A DNA stretch of 64,000 nucleotides from contig JAZKFU010000003.1 of assembly GCA_040386275.1 (NCBI GenBank), positions 46,554 through 110,553 on the forward strand. The letters run 5' to 3'. Source of the DNA: Patescibacteria group bacterium. GTDB taxonomy: Bacteria > Patescibacteriota > Minisyncoccia > Phycocordibacterales > UBA918. Shown one piece after another: positions 2,599 to 60,327 of this stretch (position 1 is its first letter; each line of letters opens with the position of its first letter). The notes beneath the pieces are model-generated. The model saw only the letters and a list, made by a program, of their open reading frames with translations, was not told where the DNA came from and searched no databases. The translations under genes and the position numbers were made by a program.

Positions 2599-2649
2599 AA
2601 ATTGATGTTTAAGTATTACTAATATTTAATAAATCATTTAACTCGCAAT

Positions 2650-2768
2650 GACTTTCAGAAACGAGTACAGTGCTAGGCGCGCAAGGACTTTTCTTGTAGA
2701 CGTACTTCTTGTACGGCGGAAAGAAAAGTATCGCAGCGCAACAACGCAATGTGCCGTTTCTGGAAGTC
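2650..2768 (+). repeat. MITE-like intergenic repeat, copy D (short form, ~120 bp) with terminal inverted repeats TTTCAGAAACG...CGTTTCTGGAAG
   Basis: Shares its left end (ctttcagaaacgagtacagtgctagg) and right end (caacaacgcaatgtgccgtttctggaag) with the copies at 5155, 14850 and 18340. Internal hairpin CGTAC-TTCTT-GTACG. Fills the spacer between two minus-strand genes. Confidence 0.7.
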
Positions 2769-2771
2769 ATA

Positions 2772-3711: not shown

Positions 3712-4935
3712 CTATTCTACTACAGCATTCGTGATACAAATTTGTTTATACACGTACGCAGAGGAACGAGGGGTTCGCTCTTGCGTAGCGTAATCTACCG
3801 CAATTAATCCAAAGCGCATTCCAAAGCCTAGTGCCCATTCGTAGTTATCAAGCAATGACCAGTACATGTGCCCGCGTACGTCAGCTCCTTTTTCAATGGC
3901 CCGCCAGGTTCCTAACACTTGTCCTTTAATATATTCAGCCCGCATACTATCAGCAGCGTCAGCAACGCCACCTTCTGACACAAACAAAGGTTTGTTGTAG
4001 CGCGCGAGCATCATGAGCGCTGTTTCAATTTTTTCTGGCGCAAAATTCCAATCCATGTCAGTCTTCCGCCAGGTTCTGTCGTCACCAAACTGCGTATAAA
4101 AATAATAATTAAGACCAATCGAATCACAACAGTCTTTCGTGCGATTCATAAATTTGTAGGTCCAATTGTAGTTTGCGATACGGGCTTTGATTTTATTAAC
4201 GAGACTCTTGTTCGCATCAAACACAATTACATGGTGCACAAAACTAACTTCCGTAGTTGGGGAAACTTTTTTAATGGCTTTGTAGGCTGCATTGTGACTT
4301 TTGGCCAAATTTTTCATCACCCGCAAATACAGAAATAACGGATTGATGCCTTTACTCGCTCTTGAATCAAGCATTTTGCCAGAGTTCGTAATAGAAATTA
4401 CATCCGTTACCGCAAAGCGTTTAAATGGAGGCCAACTACCGCGCAACCAGCCGTTACTCGCAAATACATTCGGTTCGTTCATGGTAGAAAAGTGATCACA
4501 AAGGTCACCTAATTGCTCCACTACGTACGCACAATACCGCGCAAAAATTTCGGGTGAATTTTTTTGTTCAAAGCTCCCTTTTTCAGAAAACCATAGTGGT
4601 TGAGTAAAATGCCAAATTGTAACGTAGGGTTTTAGTCCGCGTGCATGTAGGGCCTCGAGCACCTTTCGGTAGTGAACTATTGCCTCTTCATTAAATTTTC
4701 CTGGGGTAGGCTCAATCCGCGCCCACTCGACAGATAATCGGTGTGCGGTGTGGCCAAGCGATTTAGCTAAATCAAAATCAGCTTCGTACCGATTATAGTG
4801 ATCACAAGCGATTCCACATTCAGGCACGCGTCTTGCCCGAGCCGCTTCGGCCCAGTCGGTGTTATCAATACCGCCTTCGACTTGATAACTTGCCGTAGCC
4901 GAACCCCAGTAAAATCCTTCGGGAAATTTTTTCAT
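3712..4935 (-). CDS. Beta-glucosidase, glycoside hydrolase family 1
   Basis: N-terminal FPEGFYWGSATASYQVEGG. TMNEPN (acid/base) and FVSEGG (nucleophile region) motifs. Length 407 aa. Confidence 0.9.
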   Translation of the reverse strand: MKKFPEGFYWGSATASYQVEGGIDNTDWAEAARARRVPECGIACDHYNRYEADFDLAKSLGHTAHRLSVEWARIEPTPGKFNEEAIVHYRKVLEALHARGLKPYVTIWHFTQPLWFSEKGSFEQKNSPEIFARYCAYVVEQLGDLCDHFSTMNEPNVFASNGWLRGSWPPFKRFAVTDVISITNSGKMLDSRASKGINPLFLYLRVMKNLAKSHNAAYKAIKKVSPTTEVSFVHHVIVFDANKSLVNKIKARIANYNWTYKFMNRTKDCCDSIGLNYYFYTQFGDDRTWRKTDMDWNFAPEKIETALMMLARYNKPLFVSEGGVADAADSMRAEYIKGQVLGTWRAIEKGADVRGHMYWSLLDNYEWALGFGMRFGLIAVDYATQERTPRSSAYVYKQICITNAVVE

Positions 4936-4944
4936 AATTAAATG

Positions 4945-5035
4945 TTTCTCTTCTTACAGAAGCTGTACACCTTGTCAGTATTTTTTACAAAAATACTAGG
5001 CAAGGTCTTGCGAAAGTGCCTATGCACTTTCTCAC
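4945..5035 (+). repeat. Hairpin element core, copy A (same family as the tRNA-linked elements)
   Basis: cttcttacagaagctgtACACCTTGtc-agtattttttacaaaaatact-aggCAAGGTcttgcgaaagtgcctatgcactttc aligns with the tRNA-linked elements at 41634-41710 and 58001-58066. Flanked by an ~18-bp direct duplication of the GH1 start region (4917-4934 vs 5049-5067). Confidence 0.65.
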
Positions 5036-5154
5036 CCCAATAGAATTCTTCGGGAAATGTTTTTTTCAACCCGTTAGAAATTTGTTTGTCCATATGAATT
5101 GTAAATAAGTCTAACAGATTAAATCATTTTAAATATTTGTCATTATACCCTAAA

Positions 5155-5380
5155 GACTTTCAGAAACGAGTACAGTTCTAGGTGAGAAGTGACTCAATGT
5201 CACTTCGCAAGACTCATTGAGAGATTTTACAAAAATATCCAATGAGTGGACAGCTTCTGTAAGAAGGGCAAGGAAATTGTACAAAATGCGGTCCAGCGAT
5301 TTTCCTTAGGAGGAAAAATCGGGACATAAATTCAGAATAATCGCTTCGCTCATTTCTTCATTTGCCATTTGTGAAAGTTC
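5155..5380 (+). repeat. MITE-like intergenic repeat, copy B (long form, ~225 bp) containing an inverted copy of the hairpin core
   Basis: About 85-90% identical to 14850-14960 over the first ~110 bp, homologous through ~aattcagaat. Internal segment 5172-5262 is the reverse complement of element A. Hairpin GAAGTGAC-tcaat-GTCACTTC. Confidence 0.75.
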
Positions 5381-6012
5381 TAGACTAGACTAACAATCAT
5401 TAAGGTAGCTGCCACCAAGAATAATGAATACTCTACCACAGACACCCAATTTGGACGTAAATACCAGTAGATAATCCAATCATCCACCCCAAATCTAGTG
5501 ATGTAGTCCTGTAATTCATTTTCGGTCCACGACACCATAAAGCGTAATTTTGTTTCTTCAATCGGTAATTGTTTTAAATACCCACCGTCTGCGAGCATAG
5601 AACGTAAACGATTAGCGCGGCGTCCAAAAAATTTGTAATGACGCGTCGAAAGTGGCCACAGCAATTGAAGCCCCCAGCCAGTACCATATAAATCATTTAA
5701 TAAATGGAGCGTCACGGCGAGCACAATAATCAATCCCCAAAATCCGCCCCACAGAAGTACTGGTGTAAAAATAAGTAACGAAATGATTGGATAATGCAAA
5801 AATGTCCGGTGGTCTCGGGTGTAGCTGGCGTCAGTACTGACTTTCCCTCGTTTTAGTATCTCCGGAATCGCATCAATATCAGGCAACATCGCAAGCGGTA
5901 GCCCGATTAAAAAATACCACCAGAGTGGTTCGATATCATAGACAGCACACGCAATCAACACTGCAAAAATTCCATTCGCAAAATCCGCCAACAACGCCAG
6001 AATTGATTTCAT
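5380..6012 (-). CDS. Membrane-bound metal-dependent hydrolase-like protein (DUF457/YdjM-like)
   Basis: 210-aa polytopic protein with LAMLPDID and HLLNDL histidine/aspartate motifs, reminiscent of the YdjM family; weak call. Confidence 0.45.
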   Translation of the reverse strand: MKSILALLADFANGIFAVLIACAVYDIEPLWWYFLIGLPLAMLPDIDAIPEILKRGKVSTDASYTRDHRTFLHYPIISLLIFTPVLLWGGFWGLIIVLAVTLHLLNDLYGTGWGLQLLWPLSTRHYKFFGRRANRLRSMLADGGYLKQLPIEETKLRFMVSWTENELQDYITRFGVDDWIIYWYLRPNWVSVVEYSLFLVAATLMIVSLV

Positions 6013-14730: not shown

Positions 14731-14849
14731 AAATTTATAGGTGTAAGTATACTACCACTAAATTATTATTTTTTTATTTTTCTAAAATAAGTTATGTTCA
14801 CTCAAACGTTTTCCTAAATTATATGCAATCTTTTAATTTACCGGTAGGG

Positions 14850-15085
14850 TTTCATAAACGAGTACAGTTCTAGGTGAGAAGTGACTCAATGTCACTTCGC
14901 AAGACTCATTGAGGGATTTTGCAAAAATAACCAATGAGTGGACAGCTTCTGTAAGAAGCGAAAGGACAAAGACGGCAGCTGGTCCAGCGATTTTCCCAAG
15001 GGAAGAAAAAATCGGGACAGAAATTCAGAATTGTCGCTACACTCTGTTCTTCATTCCACAACGAAATGTGCCGTTTCTGGAAGCC
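14850..15085 (+). repeat. MITE-like intergenic repeat, copy C (long form) containing an inverted hairpin core
   Basis: Near-identical to copy B over ~110 bp. Right end caacgaaatgtgccgtttctggaag matches copies D/E. ORFs 14909..15142 and 14938..15168 inside it are judged spurious. Confidence 0.75.
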
Positions 15086-41610: not shown

Positions 41611-41769
41611 GAGCTGCCGATCAGGGACTCGAAGCTATACAGCTTCAGTACACCTTGTCGCTCATTTGTTTCCTATCGTAACAAAAGAGCTGGCAAGGTC
41701 TTCGAGTCCCTAATCGGACTAGCAATGGCAAAGGCCACAAATGTATTCACATTTGTGGCCTGCCTTTGC
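41611..41769. repeat. tRNA-Gln-linked hairpin element (copy F) plus spacer hairpin
   Basis: 41613-41633 (gctgccgatcagggactcgaa) duplicates the tRNA-Gln 3' end at 41770-41790. Core 41634-41710 has the ACACCTTGTC/GGCAAGGTC stem and ends in ttcgagtccctaatcgg, an inverted copy of the tRNA 3' end. Perfect hairpin GGCCACAAAT-n-ATTTGTGGCC at 41732-41760. Confidence 0.7.
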
Positions 41770-57808: not shown

Positions 57809-57940
57809 AAATAATAGATATACAGAAAATTACCTGAGCGTATCACCTCCCAAAAACCCTAACGGGTGCTCAACAGCTATTGTATCATACTACCCATTTT
57901 GGGGTGTTTATAAGTTTTTGTAACCCTTTAAATCTTTAAG

Positions 57941-58068
57941 CAAAACAAAATACCCAAGCAAAGCTTAGGTATTTTATTTGTGCTGGAGGAGGGACTTGAA
58001 ACTTACAGTTTCAGTACAGGTTGTCGCTATTTTTTCAAAATAGCTGGCAACCTTTTCAAGTCCCTGGG
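57941..58068. repeat. tRNA-Leu-linked element (copy G): 60-bp direct repeat (spacer hairpin + tRNA 3' end) flanking a 66-bp hairpin core
   Basis: 57941-58000 is identical to 58069-58128, which runs into tRNA-Leu. Core 58001-58066 is acttacag-tttcagtACAGGTTGtc-GCTATTTT-ttc-AAAATAGC-tgg-CAACCTtt-TTCAAGTCCC. Terminator-like palindrome AAAATACCCAAGC-AAA-GCTTAGGTATTTT in each repeat. Confidence 0.8.
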
Positions 58069-58108
58069 CAAAACAAAATACCCAAGCAAAGCTTAGGTAT
58101 TTTATTTG

Positions 58109-58189
58109 TGCTGGAGGAGGGACTTGAACCCTCAAGCCTTGCGGCATGCGATTTTGAGTCGCACGTGTATACCATTCCACCACTCCAGC
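58109..58189 (-). tRNA. tRNA-Leu (anticodon CAA), class II with long variable arm
   Basis: Acceptor GCTGGAG/CTCCAGC + A73, anticodon stem TGCGA/TCGCA with loop CTCAAAA, variable arm GCC-GCAA-GGC, T-arm GAGGG-TTCAAGT-CCCTC. 81 nt. Confidence 0.85.
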
Positions 58190-60121: not shown

Positions 60122-60182
60122 CTGAATAAACGAAGTGAGAGCAGAGGGACCACGATAGCAGCTTTTGAAAAAAGCGTTGCGC

Positions 60183-60278
60183 GGACTTGAAGAGGTTGCC
60201 AGCTATCTTTTTGACGAAGGAGAAAAGTAGTGACAACCTGTACAGAATTCGTAGAATTCAAGTCCTCGTGGGCCCGCC
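60183..60278. repeat. tRNA-Trp-linked hairpin element (copy H)
   Basis: Starts with GGACTTGAA (inverted T-loop). Core AGGTTG-cca-GCTATCTTTT...AAAAGTAGT-ga-CAACCT-gtacag. Ends with ttcaagtcctcgtgggcccgcc, a direct copy of the tRNA-Trp 3' 21 nt. Confidence 0.75.
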
Positions 60279-60288
60279 ACCGAAAACT

Positions 60289-60327
60289 AAAATACCACCA
60301 GCAAAAAAGCTGGTGGTATTTTAGTTT
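60289..60327 (+). terminator. Rho-independent terminator (AAAATACCACCAGC-aaaaaa-GCTGGTGGTATTTT + T-run)
   Basis: Perfect 14-bp palindrome directly after element H, analogous to the hairpins after the Leu and Gln elements. Confidence 0.6.

Follow-up and report, generated by a model that had tools for sequence, protein, structure and literature searches.

Integrative elements that target transfer RNA (tRNA) and transfer-messenger RNA genes, at the attachment (att) sites of phages, integrative and conjugative elements and genomic islands, carry a replacement for the gene end into which they insert; their integrase-less derivatives are called cis-mobilizable elements (CIMEs). Other systems recombine through folded single strands, such as the attP hairpin of the CTX phage and the integron attC site, which consists of R''/L''...L'/R' boxes (RYYYAAC...GTTRRRY) and lies beside cassette open reading frames (ORFs). 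Repetitive extragenic palindromic (REP) sequences, REPINs and the miniatures derived from IS200/IS605 are mobilised by HUH tyrosine transposases, and R2-type retrotransposons have a 5' ribozyme that leaves target ribosomal RNA (rRNA) sequence on the element RNA. Patescibacteria, with their very small genomes, have few recognised mobile elements. In this study, we analysed a stretch of 64,000 nucleotides (nt) from a Patescibacteria group bacterium (GenBank assembly GCA_040386275.1, contig JAZKFU010000003.1, positions 46,554 to 110,553; hereafter the window), in which the gene of a family 1 glycoside hydrolase (GH1) is preceded by a folded element, here called the core, that is bracketed by two copies of the GH1 start.

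The core is a small non-coding module of ~85 nt, in all likelihood mobile, which is recognised by three hairpins with short invariant linkers and occurs widely in Patescibacteria. According to a rough judgement rather than a computation, it very probably represents a mobile or selfish family, and there is a somewhat better than even chance that it is a non-autonomous module which integrates together with a replacement gene end. A full-text search of the literature found no description of the element. The nearest paper describes group I introns in the anticodon loop of Patescibacteria tRNA genes and does not mention partial duplications (PMC13011429).

Structure and distribution of the core family

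The family consensus is GUGAG-AA-[P1]-UUCGC-AAGA-[P2]-UG(N)ACAG-[P3], in which P1 to P3 are the hairpins. The copy upstream of the GH1 gene (core A, 86 nt) is laid out as GUGAG-AA-[P1]-UUCGC-AAGA-[P2]-UGUACAG-[P3], with CUUCU GUA AGAAG as its P3, and has a local fold of -36.3 kcal/mol (z -4.0); across the family the size ranges from 67 to 105 nt. When a species-representative genome collection was scanned with a pattern made from the shared blocks, at least 113 loci were obtained, at least ~105 of them real, nearly all in Patescibacteria and often with several copies per genome.

The structure is supported by covariation. In a structure-blind MAFFT alignment of 50 copies, 93.6% of the cells pair, compared with 67.3% in shuffles, and the covariation score is 0.587 as opposed to 0.153 when shuffled, a value that none of 500 shuffles reached (slid controls, 0.07-0.13). 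Among 71 covariance model (CM) matches, including copies outside the pattern selection, all 25 pairs covary, even those of P3, whose variants are CUUCU/AGAAG, GUCAC/GUGAC, GUCUC/GAGAC, AAACU/AGUUU and GAAUUC/GAAUUC. G.U pairs are scarce in the variable stems (1-2%), which favours pairing at the DNA level. The wobbles U2.G and G5.U of the base helix, at the 5' boundary, are conserved on one strand only; together with the strand-specific conserved blocks, they favour a single strand of defined polarity.

Six CM copies are present in the 64 kb of the window (Table 1), three of them strong (core A and the cores in the repeats B2 and B3) and three divergent (beside tRNA-Leu, tRNA-Trp and tRNA-Gln). 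The 17-mer CTTCTTACAGAAGCTGT occurs three times in the window, with 0.07 occurrences expected. Strand bias as a sign of lagging-strand single-strand transposition was rejected, as the copies split into three plus and three minus; GC skew is uniform across the window. Searches against Rfam 15 gave no match at E<=10 in 4850-5450 except a chance small nucleolar RNA (E 1.8), tRNAs only at the gathering threshold in the whole window, and no match for the cores at five other loci, where group I introns, tRNA and 23S rRNA were detected. With regard to a viral origin, one chance match was obtained in IMG/VR and none in phage genomes.

Two proposed roles for parts of the core were discarded. P1 as a target mimic or guide holds for some GH1-site and tRNA-Gln copies and is not general. 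P3, or the 5'/3' AGAAG direct repeat, was rejected as a conservative cross-over site, with one triplet per insertion and a repeat without covariation in two loci of other genomes, L115 and L116 (loci from other genomes are given L-numbers throughout).

Table 1. Positions of the GH1 locus, the cores and the B-type repeats in the window
Feature	Position	Strand	Basis or remark
B1, B-type unit without core	2648-2770	+	one long hairpin, -58.9 kcal/mol, z -7.6
GH1 (family 1 glycoside hydrolase), intact, 407 aa	3712-4935	-	ORF list; begins MKKFPEGFYWGSATASYQVEG
X2, downstream copy of GH1 start, ATG to codon 11 (GGT)	4903-4935	-	within functional gene
Spacer AGAAACATTTAATT, core A to GH1 ATG	4936-4949	-	14 nt
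Mechanical ORF, 51 codons, upstream ATG through X1 and core A	4938-5093	-	ORF list, translation; putative
Core A	4950-5035	-	CM match 92.6 bits, E 3.6e-22
X1, upstream GH1 5' fragment	5034-5069	-	terminates at core boundary
B2, B-type repeat, 225 nt	5155-5379	+	repeat families, folds; abuts convergent ydjM-like stop codon at 5380-5382
Core nested in B2	5182-5266	+	CM match 88.6 bits; at CTAG/G site of B-type unit
ydjM-like membrane protein gene	5380-6012	-	Pfam PF04307
B3, B-type unit with core at 14874-14958	14847-15085	+	CM match 85.7 bits
Divergent core beyond tRNA-Gln	41632-41720	-	CM match 26.4 bits
Divergent core beyond tRNA-Leu	57999-58066	-	CM match 41.8 bits; duplication score 61
Divergent core beyond tRNA-Trp	60170-60258	+	CM match 33 bits

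The GH1 site in different genomes

On the minus strand, the 444-nt gap between the ydjM-like gene and the GH1 gene holds antisense B2, an AT-rich segment of 85 nt, the upstream fragment X1, core A and the 14-nt spacer, after which the functional start X2 begins. The first two bases of core A (GT, 5035-5034) overlap the last two of X1. X2 (ATGAAAAAATTTCCCGAAGGATTTTACTGGGGT) encodes MKKFPEGFYWG, the real GH1 start, and X1 (TTGAAAAAAACATTTCCCGAAGAATTCTATTGGGGT) encodes (L)KKTFPEEFYWG with TTG at the first codon. The direct repeat of the GH1 start that an earlier note on this DNA had described around core A is borne out and is longer than reported: the repeat search gave 87% identity over 30 ungapped nt (4903-4932 and 5034-5063), and with one 3-nt indel the two copies reach 4903-4935 and 5034-5069 (33-36 nt).

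Other genomes contain this site in empty, filled and stacked states. L119/L120, whose GH1 protein is 83% identical, is empty, with neither core nor repeat; its order is ydjM-TAA-CTCT-ATG..GGGGTTCG, with 4 nt after the ydjM stop and then ATGAAAAAAACATTTCCCGAAGGATTTTATTGGGGTTCG. Seven other loci (L002, L003, L064, L115, L116/L117 and L118) have a GH1 5' fragment ending in ..TGGGG, a core and a complete GH1 gene. A single core is found in the window, L002, L003 and L116/L117; L118 has one core and the 3' remnant of an older one, L064 has two cores, and L115 contains two stacked fragment-core units. The core sits after codon 11-12 (..TGG GGT) of the 5' fragment and a complete start follows, so that GH1 stays intact. 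The repeat without a core was found at none of the compared GH1 loci. With an empty site in L119/L120 and a core between repeats at every filled site, the proposal of the earlier note that core A is an insertion, at a non-tRNA site, of the family that adjoins tRNAs has held up well.

The two copies of the start have diverged in a particular manner. Third codon positions account for 19 of the 28 substitutions between X1 and X2 (p = 2e-4 for an expectation of 1/3; p = 0.016 for the 0.46 that neutral drift of X1 would give), a small sample from loci that are not fully independent, and all indels (5/5) are whole codons. The X1 peptides MITDKKFPEGFYWG (L116) and MNTDKTFPERFYWG (L064) match natural N-termini of other orthologs. 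By these signs, X1 and X2 differ in the manner of two functional alleles.

The leader sequences are also informative. The oldest fragment in L115 has a native leader, ATAACAC directly before the ATG, that is similar to the empty L119 site, and both downstream copies have a TTTAAATT leader before the ATG, in the forms TTTTAAATT and ATTTAAATT. This downstream type of leader is found in L003 as well and, as ATTTAATT, in the spacer of the window, where it resembles the TTTTAAATT form of L115. The AGAAAC of the window spacer also directly follows the core in L118 and L064, where it opens a second core.

The cores and the genes that they precede have different histories. The cores of the window and L002 are 99% identical (85/86 bases) while the GH1 genes are 76% identical and their third positions 51%, and the cores of L118 and L064 are 99% identical with GH1 genes at 65% and third positions at 48%. 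The L002 gene is nearest to that of L115 (86%), yet the L002 and L115 cores are only 69-74% identical. Because the stem sequences are free to vary, near-identical whole cores across saturated lineages imply recent transfer or conversion. Taken together, the allele-like differences between X1 and X2, the foreign leader in L115 and the incongruence of cores and genes point to recent horizontal spread.

Other host genes and the mode of insertion

The association of core and repeat extends beyond GH1. Among the matches listed, the sequence immediately 5' of the core recurs 6-350 nt downstream in ~17-20 of 105 copies, compared with 3 in the control. The hosts include the 5' parts of tRNA-Asn, tRNA-Val and tRNA-Tyr (insertion at positions 15-26), the 3' parts of tRNAs (T-loop) and 5S rRNA; the 23S leader is probably also a host. 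A second protein gene, encoding a GT4-like protein in L085, has the arrangement MEKKPQKVLFVITKSNW-core...MTTQNKKKVLFVITKSNWGG, and its shared block differs only synonymously. In L008 (1730-1900), the 23S rRNA 5' end is immediately preceded by two cores, of which one is degenerate, and the P3-like hairpin of the second core runs into the 23S start.

The likeness to tRNA-linked copies that was drawn in the earlier note is real, as divergent family members lie at three window tRNAs and each is followed by a duplicated tRNA 3' end. In the tRNA-Leu copy (57927-58128), an antisense T-arm copy, GGGACTTGAA, precedes the core and a 61-nt repeat of the tRNA 3' end with the terminator follows it. The tRNA-Trp copy (60123-60290) is followed by a repeated tRNA 3' end that spans the T-loop through the discriminator base, and the CCA follows the downstream repeat only. 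The tRNA-Gln copy (41615-41767) has the antisense tRNA 3' end before the core and a sense copy after it. The plan of the tRNA-linked copies is rc(X)-AAGA-P2-UGUACNG-P3-X, where rc(X), the reverse complement of X, is the antisense target copy next to the core. Some tRNA-Asn copies contain a fold-back of the target after the core.

Where an uninterrupted copy is available for comparison, the core replaces exactly three target bases, G-Y-N, often after a G-run (n ~8; a loose motif). The replaced bases are GTT at GH1, GTC and GTG at the two 5S cores of L048, GCA at tRNA positions 25-27, GCG and GTA in B-type units, and GCG in L085. A few target bases from beyond the insertion point stand between the core and the second copy: 10-26 nt at tRNAs, and at GH1 the motif GGCYAC, which matches ..TCGGCTAC.. 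in the GH1 gene. The arrangement is therefore a 5' segment with the core inside it, and then the whole gene. The duplicated segment has its far edge at an RNA end or close to one (position +1 of a tRNA, the discriminator base, a point just past the terminator U-tract, or the limits of the whole mature 5S), which could result from an RNA-templated origin or merely from the favouring of the shortest duplication that preserves the gene.

Two further observations concern the RNA-gene hosts. L048 (3500-3990) contains a full-length second 5S rRNA copy, with edges within 2 nt of the mature ends, after the terminator of the intact 5S gene; this pseudo-copy harbours two cores in opposite orientations, each cleanly inserted. 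L007 (3354-3589) and L024 (2139-2493) contain group I introns in the anticodon loop of tRNA-Asn, and ARAGORN misses these tRNAs. These intron-bearing genes are the same ones whose 5' parts are duplicated around a core.

The B-type repeats and the remainder of the GH1 locus

The B-type unit is a long hairpin of ~125 nt whose closing stem (GACTTTCAGAAACG... / ...TGTGAAAGTT) covaries between copies and genomes. Such units always have the stop codon of a convergent gene 0-9 nt away and carry zero, one or two cores plus extra modules; the repeat has no Rfam family. In the window, B1 is an empty host site, and the syntenic units in L003, L115 and L119 hold one or two cores. B2 and B3 are 95% identical over 117 nt and their cores 96% identical. 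The core in B2 is, to all appearance, an independent insertion of the family into a B-type repeat.

The earlier note had viewed core A and part of B2 as reverse complements over ~90 bp within a composite inverted unit of ~320 bp. The pair stands insofar as both arms match the CM as copies of one family in opposite orientation; it is not exact, as the two cores are 74% identical in the same sense (69/93 columns). The repeat search returned inverted arms of 41 nt (4945-4985 and 5231-5271) with 76% complementarity. GTGAGAA, TTCGCAAGAC and ACAGCTTCTGTAAGAAG are identical in both cores, and the stems between them differ by compensatory changes. The composite unit resolves into two independent insertions, and B2 with the second core is absent at L002, L003, L064, L115, L116, L118 and L119. 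Because no B-type element lies between ydjM (or its replacement) and GH1 at the other loci examined, the inverted pair is specific to the window genome; it appears to be a by-product of two facing family members.

The GH1 protein belongs to Glyco_hydro_1 (PF00232, E 7.5e-73) and has more than 4000 homologs, the nearest of which is from Patescibacteria (85% identity); these homologs assign the window to the Paceibacteria/Kaiserbacteria group within Patescibacteria. The ydjM-like gene is its conserved upstream neighbour, with synteny in L002, L003, L115 and L119. The 51-codon ORF in X1 and core A has its TAA 2 nt ahead of the GH1 ATG, and it could be misannotated as a gene or couple translation to GH1. 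A scan of 4850-5450 for sigma-70 promoters and terminators gave no call on the GH1 strand. The AT-rich stretch between B2 and X1 (5094-5154, minus strand) reads GGGTATAAT on the GH1 strand and includes TATAAT at 5147-5142; it was not called by the promoter scan because it has no -35 box, and it has no counterpart at other GH1 loci. Apart from the contig of the window, a single public contig encodes an identical GH1 protein, namely L001 (SRR26324626, 2507 bp); it is identical to the window across its 330 upstream and start-proximal bases and terminates inside B2. Repeats like B2 might break short-read assemblies.

Proposed mechanism and alternatives

If the core integrates with a replacement gene end, the element would travel as the core, a short spacer and a copy of the first ~35-45 nt of GH1, and it would integrate via a single cross-over within the shared GH1-start segment. 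The upstream fragment would be the resident 5' end left in place, and the resident gene would acquire the imported 5' end by fusion. A small circle, or its equivalent, of X, the core and a few target bases that crosses once with the gene would give the observed arrangement. Such an intermediate would be circular or folded single-stranded, and it would be acted upon by an enzyme in trans. By our rough, uncomputed judgement, the single cross-over intermediate is a tentative and rather doubtful part of this account. The genes in 9493-63862 of the window include, by Pfam, DprA (DNA_processg_A), two type IV secretion pilin-like proteins, a topoisomerase and exonuclease VII; these DNA-uptake and DNA-processing functions could bear on the entry of small DNA elements into cells.

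Several findings weigh against integration with a replacement gene end. In the 8-kb surroundings of more than 100 copies among the matches listed, there is no enrichment of a recombinase, transposase or reverse transcriptase, and none was found in the best 25 of 65 Pfam families from 48 window ORFs. All-against-all clustering of the ORFs from 110 loci among the matches listed gave housekeeping clusters only; a 237-aa helix-turn-helix protein at five loci was rejected as a partner, being not tightly linked and having no informative Pfam match. Neither a circular nor a single-stranded intermediate was seen. In non-essential hosts, namely the L048 5S pseudo-copy and the B-type units, clean insertions occur without duplication, and duplication is therefore not an obligatory product of insertion. 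The start copies in L002 and L003 (90-98% identical) and in L118 (identical) fit local duplication too, and the repeat in L002 and L003 takes in host sequence that overlaps the ydjM stop codon. In addition, the allele-like pattern of X1 and X2 comes from few substitutions.

A more speculative and, in our opinion, unlikely account is that the core represents a previously undescribed structured mobile nucleic acid that finds its targets by base pairing and needs no element-encoded protein. As guides, it would use the antisense target copy that accompanies the tRNA-linked copies, along with the U.G wobble conserved at the junction. For its movement, the element might take the form of a folded single strand resembling the target, or that of an RNA which enters abundant transcripts by splicing or ligating itself and is later turned into DNA. 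As replacement gene ends would be carried routinely, essential single-copy genes in tiny genomes would survive the insertion.

Plain transposition is likewise unlikely. It supposes that some enzyme staggers its cuts by 15-60 nt and that fill-in gives a long, variable target-site duplication; the survivors would be those duplications that reach past the gene end, and later divergence and gene conversion would have altered the copies. Such a process accounts well for a repeat that ends exactly at the core boundary in the ~17-20 repeat-bearing copies, for a repeat in L002 and L003 that holds host sequence up to the ydjM stop, for the near or full identity of the start copies there and in L118, and for insertion sites located within 15-45 nt of the gene end, as limited stagger predicts. 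It is at odds with the duplication-free insertions in the L048 5S copy and the B-type units, and with the post-core target bases, which place the core inside the first copy and not between two. The bias of the X1/X2 differences to third positions and whole codons and the foreign leader in L115 are contrary to it as well, and for these two reasons the long target-site duplication suggested in the earlier note is improbable at GH1.

It is still less probable that the process is RNA-mediated, i.e., that the core RNA joins or inserts into abundant transcripts (tRNA, 5S, 23S and the 5' ends of mRNAs), either autocatalytically or through template switching, and that the chimera is copied to DNA and recombines beside the parent gene. 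The hosts are indeed mostly abundant structured RNAs, and the far edges fall on RNA ends or within a few nt of them (for example, +1 of tRNAs; at the window tRNA-Trp and tRNA-Gln, the discriminator base; past the U-tract at the window tRNA-Leu and L022; the whole mature 5S in L048). However, selection for the shortest gene-preserving duplication predicts edges near gene ends just as well, and tRNA-derived copies without CCA do not suit an RNA origin. The U.G and G.U wobbles conserved on one strand at the 5' boundary agree with an RNA, and the antisense target copy beside the tRNA-linked copies could serve as a guide, whereas G.U pairs at 1-2% in the variable stems are unusual for an RNA family. 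No reverse transcriptase was found near any of the copies listed (flanks <=8 kb), and no Rfam ribozyme or intron model matches.

A cis-regulatory RNA, with control of GH1 translation or mRNA stability by the core alone or by a large hairpin of the inverted pair of core A and B2, is very improbable. Core A does form part of the GH1 leader, oriented in sense and separated from the ATG by 14 nt, and the arrangement of core and fragment is kept in seven other genomes. In the minimum free energy fold of the minus-strand RNA (4917-5380; -132 kcal/mol, z -8.1), the conserved blocks of core A are paired with the B2 core in antisense, and the hairpin over the ribosome-binding region considered in the earlier note is thus thermodynamically possible; the fold is not conserved, B2 being absent at all other GH1 loci examined, and it is at most incidental to the window genome. 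Among the matches listed, the orientation relative to flanking co-directional genes is the same in 27 cases and opposite in 27, which argues against a cis-acting mRNA element, and copies are found beside unrelated genes, inside RNA-gene pseudo-copies and antisense to tRNAs. One close relative has no element at all. Finally, tandem slippage of the GH1 start unrelated to the element, which the earlier note had also raised, may be dismissed despite the short and direct nature of the repeat, since no ortholog has the repeat without the core, the sole core-less locus lacks the repeat, and repeat and core are also associated at tRNA, 5S and another protein gene.

The family matters beyond this locus. 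Six copies lie in 64 kb, and genomes with synonymous saturation in the neighbouring genes share cores at 99% identity. Partial pseudo-copies of tRNA, 5S and gene starts can mislead annotation, for example in the choice of start codons, as the 51-codon upstream ORF illustrates. If the mobility were guided by nucleic acid or mediated by RNA, Patescibacteria would have a new route for exchanging gene ends and for horizontal transfer.

Comparison with known systems

In tests of membership, the core appears to depart from each known system in at least one defining feature, be it the integrase, the attC boxes, terminal inverted repeats, a fixed short duplication or a model match. Group I introns have a catalytic core of P3-P9, exceed 200 nt and are modelled by RF00028; this model matches the true tRNA-Asn introns in L007 and L024 and not the cores, and the shared trait is restricted to the U.G at the 5' boundary. 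Small self-cleaving ribozymes (hammerhead, twister, pistol, hatchet and HDV-like) are set aside by the lack of an Rfam match. The core is not a miniature inverted-repeat transposable element either, as GTGAGAA..., at one end, and ...GTAAGAAG, at the other, do not form an inverted repeat and its copies show no fixed short target duplication, having either none or repeats of 15 to >60 nt.

Similar to R2 retrotransposons, the core is inserted site-specifically in RNA genes with target-derived sequence attached and a precise 5' junction. However, it is only 85 nt long, resides in bacterial hosts, has no reverse transcriptase or ORF and matches no ribozyme model. It resembles the REP and IS200/IS605 derivatives in being small, hairpin-defined, non-autonomous and abundant in intergenic DNA, and the clean G-Y-N replacements, free of target duplication but with a loose motif (n ~8), may be comparable to the insertions of this group at a short preferred motif. 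In contrast to those derivatives, its end hairpins are unrelated in sequence, exactly three target bases are replaced, many copies have gene-end repeats, and the window shows no strand bias; no RAYT, TnpA or HUH (Y1) transposase was seen in the 64-kb window and the flanks of <=8 kb elsewhere.

The resemblance to attC and the CTX attP lies in a structure that is conserved while the stem sequence varies, in the conservation of single-stranded blocks, and in target-like sequence that pairs with its complement beside the core in the tRNA-linked copies. Unlike these sites, which are single imperfect palindromes, the core has three hairpins, is found in no IntI or dif context and has gene ends as targets. 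Membership among the integron attC sites was rejected, as the core consists of three separate helices with the invariant linkers GUGAG, UUCGCAAGA and ACAG and has no R''/R' GTTRRRY ends.

The tRNA-targeting integrative elements share with the core the direct repeats of a gene end that bracket the element, one of which completes the gene (GH1, tRNA 5' and 3' ends and the GT4-like gene), as well as stacking at one site and the reuse of the same site in diverged genomes. In contrast to them, the whole element is ~110-170 bp (at GH1 ~135 bp with no gene) and lacks an integrase, as no tyrosine or serine integrase was found in or beside it among the ORFs of the 110 loci listed or in the best 25 of 65 window Pfam families. 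The targets include tRNA and protein-gene 5' ends in addition to tRNA 3' ends, clean insertions without repeats occur, and the core is folded with covariation, which is not expected of double-stranded att arms. The core therefore enters the ends of tRNA, rRNA and protein genes and yet leaves a working copy, with an attL/attR-like signature at about one hundredth of the size of an integrative element. Mobility guided by base pairing or mediated by RNA would, if true, go beyond the logic of integrative elements.

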